Positions 5,813-14,957 of a stretch of DNA of 27,675 nt are shown here, in pieces; position 1 is the stretch's first letter; each line of letters begins with the position of its first letter. The notes under the pieces were generated by a model. The model had not been told where the DNA came from. It did no database searches and saw only the letters and a list, made by a program, of their open reading frames with translations. Made by a program: the position numbers and the translations under genes. This DNA comes from an uncultured bacterium. Lineage in GTDB: Bacteria; Patescibacteriota; Minisyncoccia; Phycocordibacterales; UBA2100. The stretch lies in contig CBIMKN010000001.1 in assembly GCA_966244515.1 (NCBI GenBank), positions 1 through 27,675 of the forward strand, read 5' to 3'.

Positions 5813-6583
5813 ATGCACATCCTCGCGGACATAGGGGGGACCAAGACGCGCATCGCGCGGACCGACGACCTTGAGCGGTTCACCGACCCCGTGATCATAG
5901 ACACGCCGCAAGAGGACGACGCTTTCCTCGACACATTTTTCAATACCGTAGCTGAAGTCTCGGGCGGGTCTGCGCCAGAGAGCTATGTGATTGGCAAGCC
6001 GCAGTGGAAACGCCGCGTCGGCCTTGAGGCCGAGATCGAGAAGCGGGCGGGCGCACCGGTGCATTTTGACAACGACACGGCGCTCGTGGGACTCGGCGAA
6101 GCGCATTTCGGCGCCGGGGCAGGAGCGCGCATCTTTGTGTACGTGACGATATCGACGGGAGTCAACGGCGTCCGCATCGTCGACGGCGTTATCGATCCTT
6201 CTGCGCAGGGATTCGAGATCGGCGGGCAGTATCTCGCGACAGACGGTACGACCTCGTGGGAGGAAATGATCTCGGGCCGCGCCATCTCGAAGCGCTTCGG
6301 CGTGCATCCGAAAGAGCTCGGCAAGGACCATGAGATATGGGACGAGCTCGCCAAGACGACTGCATATGGGCTCCACAATACGATCCTGCACTGGTCGCCG
6401 GATAGGATCGCGCTCGGCGGATCAATGCTCAATGAGATTGGTATCTCGTGCGATCGTGTGAGGACGCACCTCGAGGGTATCATGAGGAAATTCCAGACGG
6501 TGCCAGAGATCGTGCACTCAGGGCTTGGAGATGTGGGCGGCCTCTACGGAGGTCTTGCGCTCCTTAGGCAGCGTCGTTCCTAG
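5813..6583 (+). CDS. ROK family sugar kinase (putative glucokinase)
   Basis: DIGGTKT, NDTALVGLGEAHFGAG, TISTGVNG, IALGGS, GLYGG; context beside PGI and GH15. Confidence 0.85.
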   Translation: MHILADIGGTKTRIARTDDLERFTDPVIIDTPQEDDAFLDTFFNTVAEVSGGSAPESYVIGKPQWKRRVGLEAEIEKRAGAPVHFDNDTALVGLGEAHFGAGAGARIFVYVTISTGVNGVRIVDGVIDPSAQGFEIGGQYLATDGTTSWEEMISGRAISKRFGVHPKELGKDHEIWDELAKTTAYGLHNTILHWSPDRIALGGSMLNEIGISCDRVRTHLEGIMRKFQTVPEIVHSGLGDVGGLYGGLALLRQRRS

Positions 6584-7175
6584 ATCGGTACTGCTTGAAT
6601 AGTTCCCAAAAGAGCGGGATCGTCGTGACGAAGATGATGCAGAGGATTACCACCTCGAGGTATTCGCCGATGAGAGGGAAGCGAGTGCCGAGCACGTAGC
6701 CGAGGGTCGTGATACCGCTTGCCCATGCGAGCGCGCCGATGATGTTGCAGATCATAAAGGTGCGGTAGTTCATACTCGCGATGCCGGCTACGATCGGCGT
6801 AAAGGTGCGGATGATAGGAATGAATCGCGCCAGGATCACGGCCTTTGCGCCATGTTTTTCGTAGAAGTGCTGCGTCTTGCGAAGGTGCTCCTGGTGGAAG
6901 AAGCGCGAATCGGGACGCGTAAAGAGTTTGATGCCTACTTTGTTGCCGAACCAGTAGCCGATGTTGTCGCCCAAGATCGCGGCGAGCGTGACGACGGGGA
7001 CGAGGATCCAGGGGTTGAAGAGGCCTGTCGATGCGAGCAGCCCCGCAGTAAAGAGGAGCGACCCGCCCGGCAGGAAGAAGCCCACGATCGTGCCGGATTC
7101 GGCAAATATGATCGCGAAGACGCCGGGGTAGCCGACTATGTGGAGCAGCGCCGAGAGATCGATCCCGAAAAACAT
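6564..7175 (-). CDS. DedA (VTT domain) membrane protein
   Basis: FAESG...FLPG.SLLFTAG, GDNIGYWFG, ARFIPIIRTF, hydrophobic segments. Confidence 0.9.
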   Translation of the reverse strand: MFFGIDLSALLHIVGYPGVFAIIFAESGTIVGFFLPGGSLLFTAGLLASTGLFNPWILVPVVTLAAILGDNIGYWFGNKVGIKLFTRPDSRFFHQEHLRKTQHFYEKHGAKAVILARFIPIIRTFTPIVAGIASMNYRTFMICNIIGALAWASGITTLGYVLGTRFPLIGEYLEVVILCIIFVTTIPLFWELFKQYRSRNDAA

Positions 7176-7183
7176 GAATCCTG

Positions 7184-7189
7184 ATTATA
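7184..7189 (-). promoter_or_regulatory. -10 box TATAAT for dedA, overlapping the glyA stop codon
   Basis: Minus strand gTATAATcaggattcATG; the TAA is the glyA stop. Confidence 0.65.
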
Positions 7190-8456
7190 CGAAGGATTCA
7201 GGGATAGGGAACTTCTTGCAGAGCTTGCGCACATCCTCGCGCACGCGCTTGTGCACCTTCTTGTCGCTCTTGTTCTTGAGCGTCTCGATCATGAGCTCGG
7301 CGACTTTCGCGCACTCTTTTTCCTTGAATCCGCGCGTCGTGATAGCAGGAGTGCCGAAGCGGATACCGGAAGGATCCATCGGCTTTCGCGTATCGTCGGC
7401 GATCGAATTCTTGTTGAGCGTCATACCGACCTCATCGAGAAGCGTTTCGGCCTCCATGCCGGAGATGCCGAGGCTGCTCCAGACGTCGGCAAGAATGAGG
7501 TGATTGCTCGTACCGCCCGTGATCATGCGCACGCCATTTTGCGCGAATACCTTCTCCATGGCCTTCGCATTTTTGAGTATCTGCTTGGCGTAGAGCCTGA
7601 ATTTCGGAGAGAGCGCTTCGCCGAAGCACACAGCCTTTGCGGCGACGTTGTGCATGAGCGGTCCACCCTGGAGACCCGGGAAGATGCTCTTATCGATTCT
7701 CTTGGCGAATTCTGCGTCTTCGCGCGTGAGTATCATGCCGCCGCGCGGTCCCCGCAGCGTCTTATGCGTCGTGGTCGTCATGATGTCGAAACCGTGGTCG
7801 AAGGGGTTGCGCACCGCCTTTCCCGCGATGAGGCCGGCGATGTGCGCGATGTCCATGACCGCGTATGCGCCCACTTCTCGCGCGATCGAGACGAACTTGT
7901 CGTAGTCGAGCTCGCGAGGGTATGCGGAGTAGCCCGCAAGCAGTATTTTCGGCTTCTCTTTTTTTGCGACAGCGCGCATTTCGTCGTAGTCGATCTCGCC
8001 GGTCGCCACGTCTTTCATCTTGTAGCGCACGAATCGGAAGATCTTGGTGAGGTAGGTGACGGGGTGGCCGTGCGTGAGGTGACCTCCGTGCGAGAGATCC
8101 ATGCCAAGCACCGTGTCTCCCGGCTCGAGGAGTGCGAAATACATGCCGATATTAGCCGGCGCACCCGCATGCGGCTGTACGTTGGCGAACTTCGCGCCGA
8201 AGAGCTTCTTTGCGCGCTCGATGGCGATCATCTCCACCTCGTCGGTGAACTTCTGGCCGCCGTAGTAGCGCTTGCCGGGGTAGCCCTCTGAGTATTTGTT
8301 GGTGAGCGACGAGGCATTGGCTTCGCGCACGGCGCGCGAGACGTAGTTTTCCGACGGGATCAATTCGAGCCCCTCTGCCTGGCGAGTCTCTTCGCCGGTG
8401 ATCGCTGCGTACACTTTCTTGTCCTGCTTCTTGATATGTGGGTACAACTCTTTCAT
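7185..8456 (-). CDS. glyA: Serine hydroxymethyltransferase
   Basis: LELIPSENY, NKYSEGYPGKRYYGG, GGHLTHG, TTTHKTLRGPRGG (PLP Lys), SGIRFGT. Confidence 0.98.
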   Translation of the reverse strand: MKELYPHIKKQDKKVYAAITGEETRQAEGLELIPSENYVSRAVREANASSLTNKYSEGYPGKRYYGGQKFTDEVEMIAIERAKKLFGAKFANVQPHAGAPANIGMYFALLEPGDTVLGMDLSHGGHLTHGHPVTYLTKIFRFVRYKMKDVATGEIDYDEMRAVAKKEKPKILLAGYSAYPRELDYDKFVSIAREVGAYAVMDIAHIAGLIAGKAVRNPFDHGFDIMTTTTHKTLRGPRGGMILTREDAEFAKRIDKSIFPGLQGGPLMHNVAAKAVCFGEALSPKFRLYAKQILKNAKAMEKVFAQNGVRMITGGTSNHLILADVWSSLGISGMEAETLLDEVGMTLNKNSIADDTRKPMDPSGIRFGTPAITTRGFKEKECAKVAELMIETLKNKSDKKVHKRVREDVRKLCKKFPIPESFV

Positions 8457-8463
8457 AACGATG

Positions 8464-8469
8464 AAATTA
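8464..8469 (-). promoter_or_regulatory. -10 box TAATTT for glyA
   Basis: 7 nt before ATG 8456 in an AT-rich spacer. Confidence 0.45.
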
Positions 8470-8501
8470 GAAATAAGAAATATGTGTGAGCTAGACCATA
8501 C

Positions 8502-9512
8502 CTATGCTTTGCTCGGCTTTTTCTCTTCGTAGCCGCCGATGTTGGCGATCTCGGCTTTCAGCGACGGGTGCGACTGGTAGTTTTCGAGCGTAATGTCCTC
8601 CTGCGTGAAGTCATCGATATTGCCGACGGCAGGATTCAATTTCACCGTGGGGAAGGGCATCGGCTCGCGCGCGATCTGTTCCTTCACCTGGTCGAAGTGG
8701 TTGGAATAAATGTGGACGTCGCCGAGCGTGTGCACGAATTCTCCCGGCGGGATCTTGGTAACTTGCGAGACCATGAGGAGAAGCAGCGAGTAGCTGGCGA
8801 TGTTGAAGGGGACGCCGAGGAAGAGATCGCCCGAGCGCTGGTAGAGCCCCAAGTTCAACTTTCCGTTCATGACCTGGAACTGCATCATGGTGTGGCAAAA
8901 AGGCGGTACGTGCGACTTCTGGCCTTCAGACGCCATCTCGTAGATGAAATCTGGATTCCATGCGCTCACGACGTATGACTTTCGATCGGGTTTTTTCTTG
9001 AGCCCCTCGATCACCCATGCGAGCTGATCGATCTCGCGCCCGTCTTTGGCGGGCCAGCGGCGCCACATGCGGCCGTAGATCGTGATGAGATCCCCCCACT
9101 TCACGACGAAAGGATCGCTCGCCGGCAATTCGGTGAGCTTCTTGATGAAGTCAGCCTGCGAATCGAACTCCTTGGTGTCGGACCACATTTGGTAGTGCTT
9201 CCACGCCCACTCGTCCCAGATGTGATTGTTCGCATCAAGCAGCGGCTTGATGTTGGAACTGCCGGAGAGGAACCAGAGGAGCTCGGTCACGATGCCCCGC
9301 CAGAATGTCTTTTTCGTGGTGAGGAGCGGGAAGCCGTCGCTGAGGTCGAAGCGCATCTGGCGGCCGAATACGGAGCGTATGAAGGGCGGCTCTTCGCCCT
9401 TCTTTTTGTACTCTTCGAGAACGACGTCGTTGAAGAACAGCGACTTATCCGCACCGTTGTCCAGAATGTCCTGACAGAGATCGAGATACTGGTATTCCGG
9501 GTGCTTTTTCAT
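8502..9512 (-). CDS. thyA: Thymidylate synthase (ThyA), divergent phosphate-binding site
   Basis: FPLLTTKK, IWDEWA, VSAWNP, PFCH (catalytic Cys), YQRSGD, LGVPFNIASY, DVHIYSNH. Confidence 0.93.
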   Translation of the reverse strand: MKKHPEYQYLDLCQDILDNGADKSLFFNDVVLEEYKKKGEEPPFIRSVFGRQMRFDLSDGFPLLTTKKTFWRGIVTELLWFLSGSSNIKPLLDANNHIWDEWAWKHYQMWSDTKEFDSQADFIKKLTELPASDPFVVKWGDLITIYGRMWRRWPAKDGREIDQLAWVIEGLKKKPDRKSYVVSAWNPDFIYEMASEGQKSHVPPFCHTMMQFQVMNGKLNLGLYQRSGDLFLGVPFNIASYSLLLLMVSQVTKIPPGEFVHTLGDVHIYSNHFDQVKEQIAREPMPFPTVKLNPAVGNIDDFTQEDITLENYQSHPSLKAEIANIGGYEEKKPSKA

Positions 9513-9513
9513 A

Positions 9514-10074
9514 TCATTTGCTCGCTATTCTTTTCTTCTTTGCGGGAACGAAGTGCTTCCAATTGTCTTTCGCGAAGCGGCCGACTTTCTTGTAGCTCTG
9601 GCTCGGCGGCGAGGAGAGCTTTGAGAAGGTGATCTGCGCGATCTCCATGCCCGGGCGCAGGATGATCGGGATGTTGCTCTGGTTGGTGATCTCGAAGGTG
9701 ATGTTGAGGAAGTGCCCGGGATTGATGATGCCGGCGGTGTTGTGGATCATGAGGCCGATGCGCGCGAGCGACGATTTGCCGCCGACTTGTATGAGGTAGT
9801 GGTCAGAACCGAAGAACTCTTTCGAGAGGCCGAGCACGGAGACGCCGGGGTGGAGCACGAACTCCTCGCCATCTTTGATCATTTTCTCGGTGGTCTTGGC
9901 GTAGATCTTGTGGGCAGGGTCTACGAAGTGCGTCGAGCTTGCGTCGTTCTCGACGAATTTATTGCCGAGAAGAATGTCGTACGAAGCGGGCTGGAGACGA
10001 GACGGATCGAACGGCTGGAGAGTGATCTCGCCATCTTTCACTGCTTTTTTGATGTCTACGTCGGATAGGAACAT
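9514..10074 (-). CDS. dcd: dCTP deaminase (trimeric dUTPase superfamily)
   Basis: LSD, LQPASYD, GKSSLARIG, IHNTAG, ITFEITN, PGMEIAQITF. Confidence 0.88.
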   Translation of the reverse strand: MFLSDVDIKKAVKDGEITLQPFDPSRLQPASYDILLGNKFVENDASSTHFVDPAHKIYAKTTEKMIKDGEEFVLHPGVSVLGLSKEFFGSDHYLIQVGGKSSLARIGLMIHNTAGIINPGHFLNITFEITNQSNIPIILRPGMEIAQITFSKLSSPPSQSYKKVGRFAKDNWKHFVPAKKKRIASK

Positions 10075-10079
10075 AGGGG

Positions 10080-10754
10080 TTAGTCTACATTAAATATTTT
10101 GTCGGTCCCGTAGTACTCGGGCCAGTGCGCATTGTAAAAGGAGAACATACGCTCAAGTCTGTCCTGTGGGAGCTCCTCGATGCCGAGCTTCTGCATGAAG
10201 GCGTCGATATCCGCCCTTGCCTCGGAGAGTTTCGATTCGTCGTCGACGACGCGCTCGATCTCGGCCAGGTATCCATAGCCTGCGTTCTTGTCGAGGCAGA
10301 CATTGAGCCCGCCCGCTCTGTACTCCTCTCGCTCGCGCGACCACTTTGCCTGGTACGTGAAGCCGGCGGAGAGGACGAGCTCGTCGAGCTCGAGGATGCC
10401 AAGCGGCACCTGCTCTTCGAACTCCATGCGGCTCACGCCGTTGGCGCTGGTATCCTCGCCGACGGATGCTTTCACGACGAGGAGCACGATGTTGTCTTTG
10501 TCGCGCGTGCGCACGGAGAAGCTCTTTGCGCGCGCCGCGAGATCTTTCAGCTTTGCCTGCGCATCGGGACTGAGGTGCGGCGCCATCACGTCTGCCAATT
10601 TCTCGATCGTACCGCCTTCGAAGTAGTGGTTGAGCTGGCGATTCCTGTCGACGAGCTGGCAGTCCGGGTCGAGGTCTTTCAGTGCGCTCCTTAGCATGTC
10701 GGCGCGCTCTGCGCTTCCTAAGAGAGACTTCACCTCGACTTCGTAGTTCTGCAT
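10080..10754 (-). CDS. CYTH / triphosphate tunnel metalloenzyme (CyaB-like fold)
   Basis: N-terminal EVEVK (ExExK), QLNHYF, VRTR, RMEFE, REREEY, CLD...YLAEIE. Confidence 0.85.
   Translation of the reverse strand: MQNYEVEVKSLLGSAERADMLRSALKDLDPDCQLVDRNRQLNHYFEGGTIEKLADVMAPHLSPDAQAKLKDLAARAKSFSVRTRDKDNIVLLVVKASVGEDTSANGVSRMEFEEQVPLGILELDELVLSAGFTYQAKWSREREEYRAGGLNVCLDKNAGYGYLAEIERVVDDESKLSEARADIDAFMQKLGIEELPQDRLERMFSFYNAHWPEYYGTDKIFNVD
10082..10087 (-). promoter_or_regulatory. -10 box TAGACT for dcd, inside the CYTH 3' end
   Basis: 7 nt before ATG 10074. Confidence 0.4.
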
Positions 10755-10762
10755 GGACGGTC

Positions 10763-10768
10763 ATTATA
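10763..10768 (-). promoter_or_regulatory. -10 box TATAAT for the CYTH gene
   Basis: Perfect TATAAT 8 nt before ATG 10754. Confidence 0.65.
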
Positions 10769-10836
10769 GCTCGCGGTCCGCGCCGTCTAGTCTTGCGCGC
10801 GGTGGGATATGTGGCAGGGTGCAGAGAGGAAGGGAG

Positions 10837-11415
10837 ATGACGATGATCGACATCCTGGTTCCCAAGATATGGGTCAGTACGGACAAGATATGGACAGGGG
10901 AGCCGGATAGGGTGCTCCTGTTCTTCGCCGGTCCGGTGAGGGGCGGCGGGGATTGGCAGAAAGACGGCTGTGATCTGGTCTCGGTGCATCCGGCGCTGAA
11001 GAACTCGGTGATCGTGACGCCGACGCGCTGGGATCGTACGCACGCTCTTGCTCCGCGATTCATGCACGGGCCGACGACGTGCTTTCCCCGCCAGCTCAAC
11101 TACGAACGCCACTACCTAGCGCTTGCGGGACTCGATGAGAGGCCGGGGTGTATCCTCTTCTGGCTCCGCTGCGAGAGCGAGGAGGATCCGCATCCGGGAC
11201 CCGAGCCGTATTCGATGGATACGCGCGGCGAGCTTGCGGAGTGGCGCATGCGCATGAAATTCCAGAATGCGCGCGTTGTCATCGGCGCAGAGCCCGACTA
11301 CCACGGGCTCAGTCAGATCCAGCGCAACTACAGCCTCGAACTCGGGTACGAATTTCCGATCTACCCGACGCTCGAAGCCACGATCGATGCGGCAGCGCGG
11401 ATGGCGTATCGCTGA
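10837..11415 (+). CDS. Nucleoside 2-deoxyribosyltransferase-like / nucleotide N-glycosidase-like protein
   Basis: LFFAGPVRGGGDWQ, QLNYERHYL, ILFWL, TRGELAEW (putative nucleophile Glu). Start set to ATG 10837 after a purine-rich SD (gagaggaagggag), 192 aa. Confidence 0.7.
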   Translation: MTMIDILVPKIWVSTDKIWTGEPDRVLLFFAGPVRGGGDWQKDGCDLVSVHPALKNSVIVTPTRWDRTHALAPRFMHGPTTCFPRQLNYERHYLALAGLDERPGCILFWLRCESEEDPHPGPEPYSMDTRGELAEWRMRMKFQNARVVIGAEPDYHGLSQIQRNYSLELGYEFPIYPTLEATIDAAARMAYR

Positions 11416-11427
11416 CGAGAGTGCAGA

Positions 11428-11449
11428 GGGGCGGCCCACGGGCCGCCCC
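11428..11449 (+). terminator. GC hairpin after the NDT-like gene (terminator-like, no U tract)
   Basis: ggggcggcc-cacg-ggccgcccc, a perfect 9-bp stem. Confidence 0.5.
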
Positions 11450-11456
11450 ATTCACG

Positions 11457-11465
11457 TGGTATATT
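11457..11465 (+). promoter_or_regulatory. Extended -10 (TGgTATATT) for folA
   Basis: 7 nt before ATG 11473. Confidence 0.6.
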
Positions 11466-11472
11466 CGCTCGT

Positions 11473-11979
11473 ATGAATGGAGCGAAAGTCGTCGCTGTCG
11501 CCGCGATCGGCAAGAACAGGGAATTGGGAAAGGGCAACGAATTGCTCTGGCACATCCCCGCAGACCTCAAGCGGTTCAAGGAGCTCACGGCGGGCCACCC
11601 GATCGTGCTCGGCCGCAAAACATTTGAATCCATCGTCGGCTATTTGGGTAAGCCGCTGCCGGGGCGGCAGAACATCGTTGTGACGCGCGACAGCAATTGG
11701 TCGTACGAGGGTGTCCTCGTCGCTGCCTCGGTCGAAGAAGCGATCGCGAAAGGTAAGGAATTGGATGGAGAACAGGTCTCGATCGGCGGCGGGGCGCAGA
11801 TATATCAGGCGGCGCTCCCGTACACCGATGAACTCCGCCTCACCGTGATCGACGATAGCAAGGAGGCGGACTCATTCTTTCCTCCGTATGAACAAGAGTT
11901 CACAAAAGTCTTGGGCGAAGAGTCGCGCGAACACGACGGTCTGCGGTATCGGTGGGTGGATTTGGCGAGGGGAGAGTGA
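11473..11979 (+). CDS. folA: Dihydrofolate reductase
   Basis: AIGKNRELG, LLWHIPADLKRFK, LGRKTFES, PLPGRQNIV, IGGGAQIY, DSFFP. Confidence 0.97.
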   Translation: MNGAKVVAVAAIGKNRELGKGNELLWHIPADLKRFKELTAGHPIVLGRKTFESIVGYLGKPLPGRQNIVVTRDSNWSYEGVLVAASVEEAIAKGKELDGEQVSIGGGAQIYQAALPYTDELRLTVIDDSKEADSFFPPYEQEFTKVLGEESREHDGLRYRWVDLARGE

Positions 11980-11984
11980 ACAGC

Positions 11985-11990
11985 TATCAT
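11985..11990 (+). promoter_or_regulatory. -10 box TATCAT for purL
   Basis: 6 nt before ATG 11997. Confidence 0.55.
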
Positions 11991-11996
11991 GCGCGC

Positions 11997-14957
11997 ATGG
12001 CTAGGCGGATCACGGTAGCGGCTACGACAGACGATGCGCGAGCCGCCGGGTACCTGCGCACTCTCCGCTCGCTCTATCCGAAATCCCGCCTCAAGGCAGT
12101 TTCCGTAGCGGCGGCGTACACGACCGACGCGAAGCTCTCCAAAAGCGAGCTTGAATCGTTCGCCAAGCGGCTCAGCAACCCGCTGATCGAGCGCTACTCC
12201 ACCGTTGCCGTCATTGCTCCGAGATCATTCACCGCCGCGATCGAGATCGGCTTTCATCCGGGCGTGACCGACAACGTGGGCAAGACCGCGAAACAGGCGC
12301 TTGAGGACATGCTCGGCCGCTCGCTTACGAAGGACGAGGATGTGTACTCGTCCGTTTTCATGTTCCTCGCTGGACCGAGCGTACGGGATGCAGCGGCAAT
12401 GGCGAGGGAGCTGCACAATCCGCTCATCGAGCGCGCGTCGATCTACTCCGCGAGCGATGCAAAGAAGGGATTCCCCATTGTCGTGCCGAAGGTGCACCTG
12501 CACGAGAGCGTCTCTGCGGATACGGTCGATCTCGACGTGAGCGACGATGAGCTTGCGCGCATCGGCAAAGAGGGCATTGCGAACGCGGATGGCACGCGCC
12601 GCGGCCCGCTCGCACTCTCGCTAAGAGCGATGAAGGTTATCCAGGCGCACTATAAGAAGCTGAAGCGCAACCCGACCGATATAGAGCTCGAATCGCTCGC
12701 GCAGACCTGGTCGGAACACTGCAAGCATTCGATTTTTGCTGATCCCATCGATGAGGTGAAAGAGGGGATCTACCGCCGCTACATCAAAGGAGCGACGAAG
12801 AAGATACGAGCGGAGAAGGGAAAAAAAGATTTCTGCGTATCCGTCTTTACCGACAATGCGGGCGGCATCGTCTTCGATGATGAGTACCTCGTTACGCATA
12901 AGGTGGAGACCCACAATTCTCCGTCGGCGCTTGATCCGTTTGGCGGCGCGATCACGGGCATTGTCGGCGTGAATCGCGACGCGCTCGGCTTCGGTCTCGG
13001 AGCGAAACCGATCGCCAATGTGTATGGCTTCTGCGTCGCAGACCCGCGCGATACGTCGCCAATCTATCGCGATGCAAAAAAGGAGCAGCCGCTCTTGCCA
13101 GCGAGGAGGATCCTTGAGGGCGTCGTGAAGGGCGTGAACCATGGCGGCAACCAGAGCGGCATACCGACGCCGCTTGGCTTTGTCGCGACAGACCCGCGCT
13201 ATCGCGGCAAGCCGCTCGTCTTCGCGGGCACCGTGGGTCTGATCCCGCGAAAAGAAGGAAAAAGGGATCTCGCACAAAAGAAAGCGCGCCCGGGAGATTA
13301 CATCGTGATGGCAGGAGGCCGCGTCGGCCTCGACGGCATCCATGGGGCGACATTTTCATCGGAAGCGCTCGCAAGCGGCTCTCCGGCCACGGCGGTGCAG
13401 ATCGGCGATCCGATCACGCAGAAGAAAATGTCGGATGCGATTGTGCGAGAGGCGCGTGAGCGTGATCTTTACAGCAGCATCACCGACAACGGGGCGGGCG
13501 GGCTTTCGTGCTCGGTCGCTGAAATGGCGAAAGAGTGCGGCGGCGCCGTCGTGTCGCTCGAAAAGGTGCCGCTCAAATATCCCGGCCTCTCTCCGTGGCA
13601 GATATGGATCTCCGAATCGCAGGAGCGCATGACGCTCTCCGTGCCGAAGAAGAAATGGAAGGAGCTGAAGAAGCTTTTCGATCGCCACGATGTAGAGGCG
13701 AGCGTGATCGGCGAGTTCACCGGCTCCAAGAGCTGTGTCGTGAAATACAAAGGCAAGACGATCATGGATATGCAGATGGATTTTCTACACGATGGCCGTC
13801 CCGTAGAGATCCAGAAGACCAAGAAGCCCGTGTATACGAACACAGAGCCGCCAAAGAAACTCCGCGCGATCGAGCCGCAGAAGGCGCTCCTCAGTCTTCT
13901 CTCGAGGCCCAATATCGGCAGCATTTCGTTCATATCGGAGCAGTACGATCACGAAGTGCAGGGCACGTCGGTGACGAAGCCGCTCCAGGGTCGCGGCAGA
14001 GTCAATGCTGACGCCGGGGTGATCCAGCCGCTGCCGCACTCCCCAAAGGGCGTCGTACTTAGTCACGGGTATTTCCCGTGGTATTCCGATATCGACACCA
14101 ATGCAATGGCCGCCGCATCGATAGACACTGCAGTACGAAACGCCGTATGCGCTGGCGCTTCGCTCAAGCATCTCGCCATCCTCGACAATTTCTGCTGGTC
14201 GTCATCGAACACTCCTGAGCGGCTCTATGAGCTCAAGCACGCCGCTGAAGCCGTGTACGACATCGCTGTCGCATACGGCACGCCGTACATCTCCGGCAAG
14301 GACAGCATGTTCAACGATTTCCGCGGGTGGAATGCAAGGGGTGAAAAGATTCATATTGCAGCACCACCCACGCTCCTTATCTCGGCGATCGGTGTCATCG
14401 AAGATGCGTCTCGCGCAACGACACTCGATTTCAAGGCTGAGGGCGACCGCATCTACCTGATCGGAGACACGAATGACGAGCTCGGCGCATCGGAATACTT
14501 CGGAATGCTCTCGTCGTCCGCAAAAAAAGCATACGTCGGCTCGCGCGTGCCTCGCACTGATGTAAAGAAGAATGCTCGTGCGTACCGCGCGCTCGAGATA
14601 GCGATGCATAGCGGCGCGGTCGTCTCCGCACTCTCGGTCGGACGCGGCGGTCTTGGCGTCGCGCTCGCCAAATCCGCCATCGCCGGTCAGATCGGCGCTA
14701 TGATCGATCTCACGAAACTTCCAGGCGACGCACAGCATGCCGACTCCGTACTCTTCTCTGAGAGCCAGGGCCGCATCCTCGTTAGCGTCCGCGCCGGAGA
14801 GGAAGAGAAGTTTGAGAAAGCCATGCGGGGGACCGTCTGCACGCGGATCGGTACCGTGCGCGGACGCGACCTGTCGGTCATAGCTGGCAGAGGGACGCTC
14901 AATACGAGCATAGAGAAGCTCACCGCCGCATATCGCACACCTTTCAAAAATTGGTAA
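11997..14957 (+). CDS. purL: FGAM synthase synthetase subunit with PurS-like N-terminal extension
   Basis: QTWSEHCKH, KVETHNSPS..DPFGGA, DNGAGGL, SESQERM, QYDHEV, ISGKDS, FSESQGR; N-terminal PGVTDNVG. Start set to ATG 11997 (986 aa). Confidence 0.95.
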   Translation: MARRITVAATTDDARAAGYLRTLRSLYPKSRLKAVSVAAAYTTDAKLSKSELESFAKRLSNPLIERYSTVAVIAPRSFTAAIEIGFHPGVTDNVGKTAKQALEDMLGRSLTKDEDVYSSVFMFLAGPSVRDAAAMARELHNPLIERASIYSASDAKKGFPIVVPKVHLHESVSADTVDLDVSDDELARIGKEGIANADGTRRGPLALSLRAMKVIQAHYKKLKRNPTDIELESLAQTWSEHCKHSIFADPIDEVKEGIYRRYIKGATKKIRAEKGKKDFCVSVFTDNAGGIVFDDEYLVTHKVETHNSPSALDPFGGAITGIVGVNRDALGFGLGAKPIANVYGFCVADPRDTSPIYRDAKKEQPLLPARRILEGVVKGVNHGGNQSGIPTPLGFVATDPRYRGKPLVFAGTVGLIPRKEGKRDLAQKKARPGDYIVMAGGRVGLDGIHGATFSSEALASGSPATAVQIGDPITQKKMSDAIVREARERDLYSSITDNGAGGLSCSVAEMAKECGGAVVSLEKVPLKYPGLSPWQIWISESQERMTLSVPKKKWKELKKLFDRHDVEASVIGEFTGSKSCVVKYKGKTIMDMQMDFLHDGRPVEIQKTKKPVYTNTEPPKKLRAIEPQKALLSLLSRPNIGSISFISEQYDHEVQGTSVTKPLQGRGRVNADAGVIQPLPHSPKGVVLSHGYFPWYSDIDTNAMAAASIDTAVRNAVCAGASLKHLAILDNFCWSSSNTPERLYELKHAAEAVYDIAVAYGTPYISGKDSMFNDFRGWNARGEKIHIAAPPTLLISAIGVIEDASRATTLDFKAEGDRIYLIGDTNDELGASEYFGMLSSSAKKAYVGSRVPRTDVKKNARAYRALEIAMHSGAVVSALSVGRGGLGVALAKSAIAGQIGAMIDLTKLPGDAQHADSVLFSESQGRILVSVRAGEEEKFEKAMRGTVCTRIGTVRGRDLSVIAGRGTLNTSIEKLTAAYRTPFKNW

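Follow-up and report, generated by a model that had tools for sequence, protein, structure and literature searches.

Genes of the locus and of the genome

The window, meaning the whole 27,675-nucleotide stretch of DNA analysed here, contains genes for a CYTH/triphosphate-tunnel metalloenzyme (TTM) protein, a dCTP deaminase variant termed Dcd(N), a thymidylate synthase variant (ThyA) and GlyA that are co-oriented on the minus strand and spaced by 5, 1 and 45 nt, with folA divergent (Table 1). The co-orientation and spacing of the four genes, as given in the first-pass annotation, are confirmed by the open reading frames and by Pfam and NCBIfam matches.

Table 1. Genes of the locus with their positions in the window, strand and supporting matches.
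Gene product	Position	Strand	Evidence
GlyA, serine hydroxymethyltransferase	7185-8456	-	PF00464 493 bits; NF000586 565 bits
ThyA, long-form (L. casei-like), variant type A, 336 aa	8502-9512	-	PF00303 317 bits; TIGR03284 351 bits (cut-off 108); NF002496 344 bits (cut-off 325)
Dcd(N), dCTP deaminase variant, 186 aa	9514-10074	-	PF22769 115 bits; TIGR02274 140.5 bits (cut-off 92.8)
CYTH/triphosphate-tunnel metalloenzyme, 224 aa, first gene of the operon	10080-10754	-	PF01928 48.4 bits (cut-off 23.2)
NDT-like (PF15891-like)	ORF 10753-11415, start probably 10837	+	atlas feature match 0.96
FolA, dihydrofolate reductase	11473-11979	+	PF00186 156 bits

Searches against Pfam, NCBIfam and PDB sequences gave no match for the NDT-like open reading frame; a language-model atlas alone groups it with PF15891 (Nuc_deoxyri_tr2) nucleoside 2-deoxyribosyltransferase-like clusters, and the label is a lead rather than a finding. 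The gene had been counted as a member of the system, however it occurs in only 2 of approximately 100 related loci (L017 and L025) and is a neighbour only, outside the conserved module.

A search of the whole 773-kb (0.77-Mb) genome, which is 90% complete, identified no Dut, the sole PF00692 match being Dcd at 20 bits, under the cut-off; the absence of dut noted at the locus thus extends to this assembly. Neither MazG nor a dimeric dUTPase was found in the same 90%-complete genome, nor were a dCMP deaminase, ThyX, TK or dNK. Both Tmk and Ndk are encoded on contigs other than that of the CYTH operon, and a ribonucleotide reductase-like gene lies elsewhere in the genome.

The CYTH, Dcd(N) and ThyA proteins

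The CYTH protein carries the ExExK motif as YEVEVK at residues 4-9, and E5, E7, K9, R82, R84, K95, R109, E111, R142, E165 and E167 are invariant in 14 divergent members of its subfamily. The best Foldseek matches of its AF2 model (pLDDT 90.4, pTM 0.81) are 7ns9, 1yem, 2een, 2aca and 3n0z, each with a probability of 1.00, and in this model the eight-stranded antiparallel beta-tunnel fold of TTM enzymes and the catalytic residues are intact. The fold is that of SaTTM from S. acidocaldarius (7ns9), PH1819 (2een) and CyaB/YpAC-IV (2fjt, 3n0z), with a Foldseek E of 3e-11 and a TM of ~0.7 on target, and the ExExK motif and the basic and acidic tunnel residues are shared with SaTTM, PH1819 and the class IV cyclases, however sequence identity to these structures is only 16-20%. 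The CYTH subfamily further differs from them in an extra helical hairpin (residues ~50-75), a conserved, subfamily-specific aromatic C-terminal helix (MF..YN..W..YYGT, 197-217) and a genomic context of thymidylate synthesis.

Databases label the protein 'predicted adenylyl cyclase CyaB' or 'class IV adenylate cyclase', and these names, together with a weak match to TIGR00318, would fit a CyaB-type signalling cyclase, or a gene that sits in the operon with no functional link to it. The match, however, scores 32.7 bits where the cut-off is 57.95 and aligns only residues 82-194, for which the assignment as CyaB was rejected; with the gene's conserved position, also beside ThyA on phage-like contigs, and its complementarity with Dut (both described below) equally against it, this reading appears highly improbable. 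Homology to trimeric dUTPases was also rejected, as there is no PF00692 match. Characterised TTM enzymes mostly remove the gamma-phosphate (yielding NDP and Pi) or catalyse cyclisation; we know of no CYTH enzyme with demonstrated dUTPase activity, and a TTM enzyme that directs water to the alpha-phosphate would be the first of its family. It has been suggested, as a suggestion only, that phage CYTH triphosphatases might have a role comparable to that of dUTPases (Iyer et al. 2021, PMC7824862), and our literature search found no experimental report.

The best PDB match of Dcd(N) is the bifunctional M. tuberculosis Dcd:dut (2qxx, E 2e-32), and alignment to 2qxx and 1xs1 shows that the deaminase Ser and Arg (GKSSLAR) and Glu (TFEITN) are retained. 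Along with these residues, Dcd(N) shares the TAG-x-I-x-PG backbone with the bifunctional enzymes of M. tuberculosis (Rv0321) and M. jannaschii (2qxx, 1ogh), however their IDPGFSG reads INPGHFL[NH], which alters the catalytic-water Asp, the deoxyribose-stacking aromatic and the Gly, and their KYQGQ lid reads RFAKDN (GRFAKDNW at the C-terminus of the window protein). In the window, INPGHFLN aligns with IDPGFSGH of the M. tuberculosis enzyme, placing Asn at the motif-3 Asp, and all CYTH-linked Dcd homologues examined have I/V-NPG, not IDPG. The motif-3 Asp positions the attacking water in dUTPases and in bifunctional Dcd:dut enzymes. The D83N substitution reduces the catalytic efficiency of M. 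tuberculosis Dut to 0.0002 of its original value and does not impair binding (PMC5519681). The Asp expected of a bifunctional deaminase:dUTPase is replaced by Asn here and in all linked homologues examined, and Dcd(N), having lost the dUTPase Asp and kept the deaminase Glu, is predicted to be a deaminase only. Dcd is thus altered, as first described, however the changes fall on the catalytic-water/deoxyribose motif and the C-terminal lid, and not on phosphate handling in general.

The window ThyA resembles the long-form thymidylate synthases of L. casei and E. faecalis (1lca, 3uwl), with ~45-50% identity and the same long insert. In a residue table covering 91 homologues, C146, N177, H207, Y209, R166, S167 and D169 (E. 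coli numbering) are kept in 85 of 85 CYTH-linked sequences; the catalytic Cys, Asn, His and Tyr, with R166 and S167, are thus common to the variant and the long-form enzymes. Of the four dUMP-phosphate arginines (E. coli R21, R126', R127' and R166), only R166 is kept in linked ThyAs: R21 is replaced by K, A, S or Q, R126 by K or H, and R127 by S, N or H, with K, K and S in the window protein. Alignments to PDB sequences agree (in L. casei numbering, R23, R178 and R179 are changed, and R218, the catalytic Cys, Asn229, His259 and Tyr261 are retained), and three of the four arginines of the long-form enzymes therefore read K, H or K, and N or S in the variant. The earlier description of ThyA as altered at phosphate-handling residues holds for every CYTH-linked ThyA. 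The variant also differs from the long-form enzymes by 4-7 additional residues before the catalytic Cys (VPPFCH in the window) and by a C-terminal extension of 8-31 residues opening with GG[YF] (GGY in the window), so that the C-terminal carboxylate is not at the canonical site-closing position; a version on a phage contig terminates exactly at GGY. The AF2 model has a pLDDT of 88, with values <50 in the pre-Cys insertion (191-198) and the tail (326-336). A natural thymidylate synthase active without one phosphate-binding Arg is known, the Vibrio 'VAAP' enzyme with Gly at R127 and a raised Km, and the single loss was named as the first natural case (PMC6005164). Where VAAP has lost one such arginine, the variant described here has lost three of four.

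Conservation of the operon and complementarity of CYTH with Dut

The order FolA|CYTH-Dcd-ThyA-(Tmk)-GlyA is seen in all 80 species loci as far as the contigs reach, in Kaiserbacteria, Adlerbacteria and relatives, and a synteny scan confirmed 160 loci. Among GTDB species loci with enough sequence, CYTH is followed by Dcd in 76 of 76 and by ThyA in 73 of 73; in 75 of 80 loci FolA precedes CYTH in divergent orientation, and GlyA is the final gene of the conserved block. At least nine related genomes have tmk placed between thyA and glyA, and Tmk is kept in 10 of the 12 CYTH-bearing genomes of the genus. Because it recurs in 76/76 loci with sequence downstream of CYTH, the arrangement is far beyond chance, the genomes compared being related MAGs whose counts are not independent. 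The synteny also tracks the variant motifs, with an I/V-NPG Dcd and an Arg-poor ThyA at every linked locus examined.

Distant members of the CYTH subfamily (30-36% identity) precede variant ThyA on three further contigs: L113, where DHFR and RNR follow and capsid genes are present; L119, which carries a recombinase gene; and L117, on which no phage marker was seen. In two other genomes (G183 and G258) CYTH heads a gene run that includes dCMP deaminase. These five contexts all call for a dNTP to dNMP step. In three CYTH-bearing genomes (G200, G271 and G261) neither dcd nor thyA adjoins CYTH, and CYTH genes away from dcd and thyA adjoin ROK/PGI or Gmk/Nudix genes.

Across 301 genomes drawn evenly from the order, the CYTH subfamily occurs in 34, from ~19 families, and 33 of these lack Dut (the exception, G187, encodes a true Dut as well as CYTH), while ~61% of CYTH-less genomes have a PF00692 match above the cut-off; the expected anticorrelation with dut is therefore observed. 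Eight genera (g30, g57, g58, g59, g80, g84, g139 and g149) mix species with CYTH and no Dut and species with a dUTPase-family protein and no CYTH. In two genomes (G179 and G277) the gene found between folA and Dcd(N) is not CYTH but a Dcd-family gene whose product keeps the Asp (TDPGYxGK) and has Gly at the deaminase Glu. In the residues it has kept and lost this protein mirrors Dcd(N), and it is related to 2yzj, the Dcd-like dUTPase of S. tokodaii. One genome, G157 (89% complete), encodes Dcd(N) and variant ThyA with neither CYTH nor a dUTPase-like partner.

We consider it moderately probable that the operon, the only visible route to dTMP in this organism, is a dCTP-deaminase pathway made of unusual parts in which CYTH replaces Dut. 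The RNR-like gene would provide dCTP, which Dcd(N) would convert into dUTP but be unable to hydrolyse further because its motif-3 Asp is Asn. CYTH, a predicted dUTP hydrolase yielding the monophosphate and possibly acting on dCTP as well, would cleave dUTP into dUMP with release of PPi or two Pi, both feeding ThyA and excluding dUTP from DNA as a non-orthologous replacement for Dut. The variant ThyA would methylate dUMP using 5,10-methylene-THF derived from GlyA, with FolA recycling DHF, and Tmk and Ndk would carry dTMP to dTTP. All of these activities, including the substrate and cleavage site of CYTH, are predicted from the genes present, their motifs, their synteny and their phyletic distribution. 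The predicted methylation of dUMP by ThyA with formation of DHF fits the conserved placing of folA and glyA at the locus, and also the fact that tmk is kept.

Three independent lines of sequence comparison support CYTH as a putative stand-in dUTPase: its complementarity with Dut, the replacement of CYTH in its slot by a dUTPase-type Dcd paralogue, and the loss of the Asp in the partner Dcd. On these lines the core of the initial proposal, a Dut-less dTTP module with CYTH as dUTP pyrophosphatase, stands, without the NDT-like gene, the phosphate-handling wording for Dcd and the alternative ThyA substrate discussed below. Against it are the attack of water on the alpha-phosphate, atypical of TTM chemistry, the genome with neither CYTH nor partner (G157), the genome with both CYTH and Dut (G187) and the three genomes in which CYTH adjoins neither dcd nor thyA (G200, G271 and G261), and the loss of three of four ThyA arginines is left without explanation.

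The first-pass annotation had also proposed that ThyA acts on a substrate such as dUDP or dUTP, with CYTH trimming or sanitising triphosphates. In such a route CYTH would be a classical TTM gamma-phosphatase converting dUTP into dUDP and Pi, and ThyA would yield dTDP or dTTP directly, bypassing dUMP, Dut and Tmk. The smaller residues at R21, R126 and R127, the GG[YF] tail and the pre-Cys insertion could create space for additional phosphates, TTM enzymes most commonly hydrolyse the gamma-phosphate, strict fixation of the Asn in Dcd(N) would be sensible if dUMP formation must be avoided, and the pairing of variant ThyA with CYTH persists on the distant contigs, two of them phage-like. The same ThyA lineage, however, works beside a Dcd-like dUTPase in G179 and G277, whose ThyAs are basal in type B of the ThyA tree (the window ThyA is type A), and beside a true Dut in G187; to our knowledge all characterised enzymes of the Dcd-like dUTPase/Dut fold yield dUMP. 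In addition, Tmk is widely retained and in some related genomes lies inside the operon, and the genome analysed here has no detected TK or dNK that would otherwise supply Tmk with dTMP. In ThyA itself R166, S167, H207 and Y209 are all kept, a basic residue persists at two of the three positions that lost Arg (K at R21, H/K at R126), and we know of no ThyA homologue that acts on a di- or triphosphate. The proposal gains no support from these comparisons and seems quite improbable.

Returning to CYTH as the replacement for Dut, Dcd(N) might instead still be bifunctional, or an unrecognised enzyme might remove dUTP, leaving CYTH another task in the nucleotide pool (triphosphate, dNTP or dCTP housekeeping) or in regulation. 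The nearest match of Dcd(N) is the bifunctional M. tuberculosis enzyme, G157 manages with neither CYTH nor partner, some CYTH genes lie apart from dcd and thyA, and the nearest solved TTMs are tripolyphosphatases or ATPases. We nevertheless regard this as unlikely: the Asn is fixed in all homologues examined and the equivalent change nearly abolishes Dut activity (PMC5519681), a Glu-less, Asp-bearing paralogue takes the place of CYTH in two genomes, and CYTH and Dut are nearly mutually exclusive.

Implications and comparison with known routes

Almost all organisms are considered to have dUTPase activity, and the unrelated folds known to supply it are few. If CYTH has the proposed role, the triphosphate tunnel would be an additional dUTPase fold, the large and mostly orphan CYTH family would gain a defined function in housekeeping, and annotation as 'adenylate cyclase CyaB' would be corrected in thousands of cases. 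The module is the principal predicted source of thymidylate across a wide branch of Patescibacteria (Kaiserbacteria, Adlerbacteria, Paceibacteria) and is also found on phage-like contigs. Both partner enzymes represent natural experiments: Dcd(N) would be a Dcd that split off its hydrolase half, and the variant ThyA is the first lineage of thymidylate synthases observed to have lost three of its four 'invariant' arginines for phosphate binding, which bears on the mechanism of the enzyme and on inhibitor design.

The proposed pathway follows the logic of the E. coli-type dcd-dut-thyA-folA-tmk route, from dCTP through dUTP and dUMP to dTMP, with the GlyA/FolA folate cycle and Tmk and Ndk downstream. 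It differs in the absence of Dut, the CYTH/TTM protein in the functional slot of Dut, the grouping of the genes in one operon, the Asp to Asn change in motif 3 of Dcd, and a ThyA without three of the four phosphate-binding arginines. The role proposed for CYTH, conversion of dUTP and perhaps dCTP into the monophosphate, is the same as that of the trimeric Dut, the dimeric all-alpha dUTPase/MazG-like enzymes, the T4 gp56 dCTPase-dUTPase and the Dcd-like 2yzj. As with other non-homologous dUTPases, CYTH would supply ThyA and clean the nucleotide pool, and its distribution complements that of Dut, however its eight-stranded triphosphate tunnel is a fold distinct from those of the trimeric, dimeric/MazG-like, gp56 and Dcd-like dUTPases.

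The CYTH operon and the gene content of its genome

The window encodes a minus-strand operon of four genes, CYTH, Dcd, ThyA and GlyA, with intergenic gaps of 5, 1 and 45 nt and with FolA divergent from it, confirming the coordinates and gaps of the first-pass annotation. The CYTH protein is an intact triphosphate tunnel metalloenzyme (TTM); its ExExK motif does not vary within the subfamily, nor do the Arg, Lys and Glu residues of the tunnel. AF2 gives a confident structure (pLDDT 90), and its structural matches, at 16-20% identity, are SaTTM, PH1819 and class IV cyclases. Two elements set the subfamily apart: a helical hairpin around residues 50-75 and, at the C-terminus, a helix of the pattern MF..YN..W..YYGT. 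The protein falls below the CyaB equivalog cut-off, and public annotation goes no further than the names "CYTH domain-containing protein" and "predicted adenylyl cyclase CyaB".

Features of the window and of the loci compared with it (G, sampled genome, G000 being the window's own; C, contig; L, locus)
Feature	Location	Strand or orientation	Profile, order or context
CYTH	window, 10080-10754	minus	PF01928
Dcd, dCTP deaminase	window, 9514-10074	minus	PF22769, TIGR02274
ThyA, long-form thymidylate synthase	window, 8502-9512	minus	PF00303, TIGR03284, NF002496
GlyA, serine hydroxymethyltransferase	window, 7185-8456	minus	
FolA	window, 11473-11979	divergent from operon	
NDT-like ORF	window, 10753/10837-11415		between CYTH and folA; language-model atlas only
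PurL-like ORF	window, 11952-14957	plus	1001 aa
Reductase-like gene	G000 contig 32, 4719-5354	plus	outside window; 792-aa open frame
L107	G187:C5, 5013-5729		trimeric-type dUTPase
L120	G157:C39, 4433-6579		FolA, divergent Dcd(N)-ThyA-GlyA
L113	4001-7736		CYTH-ThyA, then DHFR, RNR; capsid genes on contig
L119	5001-7037		CYTH-ThyA; SSAP recombinase gene on contig
L117	3646-4552		CYTH-ThyA; no phage marker, only intein-bearing DNA methylase
L127	G183:C34, 2799-4996		third CYTH context
L125	G258:C12, 4427-6555		third CYTH context
L103	G021:C11:16000-24000		folA <- Dcd-like <- ThyA-like, then tmk -> glyA
L104			as L103
L105			as L103

The genome assembly in which the window forms contig 1 comprises 773 kb in 101 contigs (90% complete, 56% GC). 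The absence of dut noted in the window extends to this 90% complete genome, in which no Dut, MazG or dimeric dUTPase was found and the sole match to the dUTPase profile PF00692 is Dcd itself, at 20 bits and under the cut-off. Searches of the same assembly for dCMP deaminase, ThyX, thymidine kinase and deoxynucleoside kinase likewise returned nothing, and thymidylate kinase, the presence of which had been left to a genome-wide search, is encoded on contig 60 (Tmk), with Ndk on contig 2. On this gene content, and as far as 90% completeness allows, no source of dUMP and dTMP other than the operon is visible, and ThyA is the sole visible supplier of dTMP for Tmk.

The sole ribonucleotide-reductase-like gene found lies on contig 32, and its match to PF02867 is very weak (27 bits combined, from pieces of 13-15 bits each); all dNTPs would have to come from this divergent reductase. 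Downstream of folA, a PurL-like ORF overlaps the end of that gene by 28 nt, and its FGAR-AT linker domain begins only at approximately residue 219, so that the protein is extended or fused at its N-terminus unless the start codon is over-called. A scan for promoters and terminators across 6400-12200 gave counts near or inside the shuffle range.

The NDT-like gene had been included in the system by the first-pass annotation, which was not borne out; it is placed outside the module because just two related loci carry it. The ORF has no HMM match and no meaningful PDB sequence match, and is grouped with PF15891 nucleoside deoxyribosyltransferase-like clusters by the language-model atlas alone.

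Conserved gene order and altered Dcd and ThyA proteins

The order CYTH-Dcd-ThyA-GlyA is present in 12 genomes of the window's genus. When the CYTH alignment was searched against one genome per GTDB species, 160 loci were confirmed, and among the best 80 of these, which were analysed, Dcd comes after CYTH in every one of the 76 loci with sequence at that point, ThyA comes after Dcd in each of the 73 that extend far enough, and FolA is divergent and upstream in 75. A tmk gene lies between thyA and glyA in six of these best 80 loci and in genomes G002, G014 and G016. Long frames resembling fusions of CYTH to Dcd or ThyA in G123 and G102 were dismissed as upstream read-through.

The window Dcd is closest to the bifunctional Mycobacterium tuberculosis Dcd:dut (2qxx, E 2e-32), and its deaminase residues are intact, including GKSSLAR and the Glu of TFEITN. 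However, where the M. tuberculosis enzyme reads IDPGFSGH the window Dcd reads INPGHFLN, and its C-terminal lid is GRFAKDNW in place of the reference SKYQGQ. All linked Dcds carry I/V-NPG, the motif-3 Asp to Asn change that defines the variant Dcd(N). In M. tuberculosis Dut the corresponding substitution, D83N, cuts catalytic efficiency to 0.0002 of its value and does not impair substrate binding (PMC5519681). Dcd(N) is therefore predicted, on its motifs, to be a deaminase only, through loss of this Asp.

ThyA is approximately 45-50% identical to the Enterococcus faecalis and Lactobacillus casei enzymes, and the PDB alignment places changes at L. casei R23, R178 and R179, corresponding to E. 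coli R21, R126 and R127, together with eight extra residues ahead of the catalytic Cys and a chain that runs past the canonical C-terminus. These three arginines are absent from all 85 linked ThyAs, in three replacement patterns: K/K/S in type A, to which the window belongs; K, A, S or Q at R21 with H/N at R126/R127 in type B; and F/K/H in type C. All 85 retain C146, R166, S167, D169, N177, H207 and Y209, have a WNP-to-Cys spacing of 17-18 residues, as against 10-13 in canonical forms, and bear a C-terminal extension of 8-31 residues opening with GG[YF]. In the AF2 model the core is confident and the pre-Cys insertion and C-terminal tail are disordered (pLDDT <50). Loss of a single such arginine in a Vibrio thymidylate synthase was described as the first natural case (PMC6005164), which makes the three-fold loss unusual. 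The altered residues claimed for both proteins hold across the linked loci.

Maximum-likelihood analysis places the variant ThyAs together in a single group beside canonical CPR ThyAs, with moderate support (90/76). Horizontal transfer of thyA in Patescibacteria has been noted (PMC12455944). The phosphate-site change co-varies with the CYTH module. A strict need of the variant ThyA for CYTH was rejected: the variant occurs in G157, G179 and G277, which lack CYTH, and G183 and G258 carry CYTH with a different ThyA type.

CYTH in relation to dUTPases across the order

Of 301 genomes sampled evenly across the order, 34 carry the CYTH subfamily, spanning approximately 19 families and 21 genera, and 166 of the 301 have a dUTPase-family match over the cut-off. 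The weak PF00692 matches in the 34 CYTH-bearing genomes all fall on the linked Dcd where their position was examined, and the stronger match of G275 (1e-6) is likewise its Dcd(N). Of the 34, only G187 has a true Dut. Eight genera (g30, g57, g58, g59, g80, g84, g139 and g149) mix species having CYTH and no Dut with species having a dUTPase-family protein and no CYTH; genus g71 includes a CYTH-less genome with neither.

The Dut of G187 (L107) has the motifs VDPDYRGE and RGSGGFGSTG. It is a dUTPase of the trimeric type, extended at the N-terminus by approximately 90 aa, and the cluster that it adjoins is complete (folA|CYTH-Dcd(N)-ThyA-GlyA). A second exception, G157, has Dcd(N) (INPGHFLQ), ThyA and GlyA, with neither CYTH nor a dUTPase-like partner anywhere in its 89% complete genome, and is accounted for by none of the models.

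Two genomes, G179 and G277, have a second Dcd-family gene where CYTH would otherwise stand, between folA and Dcd(N) (187-193 aa; PF22769 83-94 bits, PF00692 36 bits). Its product keeps the motif-3 Asp (TDPGYxGK) and PRSS, and Gly replaces the deaminase Glu (LTMGLTN); its PDB matches include the Sulfolobus tokodaii Dcd-like dUTPase 2yzj, the top matches being chains named dCTP deaminase. With Asp kept and Glu lost, the two activities of the bifunctional enzyme therefore appear split over two paralogues in these genomes, and elsewhere CYTH would sit in place of the hydrolase half.

The same ThyA lineage thus stands beside dUTPase-fold partners in G179 and G277, at the base of type B, and in G187, and dUTPase-fold enzymes yield dUMP in every characterised case. 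This argues against an alternative of the first-pass annotation, that the variant ThyA methylates dUDP or dUTP directly, although the smaller residues replacing the lost arginines, the new Gly-Gly-aromatic tail, the strictly fixed Asn of Dcd(N) and the gamma-phosphate hydrolysis usual for TTMs are in its favour. The phosphate site appears softened and not abolished, since R21 and R126 mostly become Lys or His, and tmk, the loss of which was considered as a signal of direct methylation, is retained in 10 of the 12 CYTH-bearing genomes of the genus, sometimes inside the operon. Direct methylation is unsupported and improbable.

The other proposal, that CYTH is a non-orthologous dUTP pyrophosphatase feeding dUMP to ThyA, draws on the phyletic pattern, the positional replacement and the Asp to Asn change of Dcd, and in these comparative terms is supported but unproven. 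A literature search returned no experimental or biochemical report on a CYTH dUTPase, a TTM with dUTP, or Patescibacteria thyA or dcd; all that emerged was one speculation in print, that the CYTH triphosphatases of phages could have a dUTPase-like role (PMC7824862).

Further CYTH contexts and comparison with the known pathway

On three metagenomic contigs (L113, L117 and L119), a distant CYTH of 30-36% identity lies immediately upstream of a type-A-like variant ThyA with RKSY at the RR site (YRKSY in L113, where the C-terminus is VVGGY). In a third context (L127 and L125), CYTH lies divergent from folA and is followed by a cytidylyltransferase-like gene (201 aa, PF01467) and a 286-aa protein with a C-terminal dCMP-deaminase domain (PF00383), with a ThyA of R-T type and canonical C-terminus a few kb off. 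CYTH is found near ROK/PGI or Gmk/Nudix genes, with thyA not nearby, in G200, G271 and G261, and profile matching over these three genomes and those of L127 and L125 (G183, G258) detected no Dut. A putative pyrimidine dNTP-to-dNMP hydrolase, also needed in pool cleaning, would fit every one of these contexts.

CYTH-less species of the window's genus have a different module at the same locus, flanked by glyA and a VTT gene (L103-L105). Its Dcd-like protein (211 aa, IDSGYEG) has Pro at the deaminase Glu, and its ThyA-like protein has Asp at the uracil-specifying Asn (FPSDVAG) and CPY replacing CH, which is the signature of a dCTPase with a dCMP methylase or hydroxymethylase, rather than of the dUMP route.

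Compared with the known dcd route to dTTP, the pathway of the window's operon is the same. What is new is its parts, judged by their predicted roles: a TTM-fold protein in the role of Dut, a deaminase-only Dcd, and a thymidylate synthase with one of the four phosphate-binding arginines.
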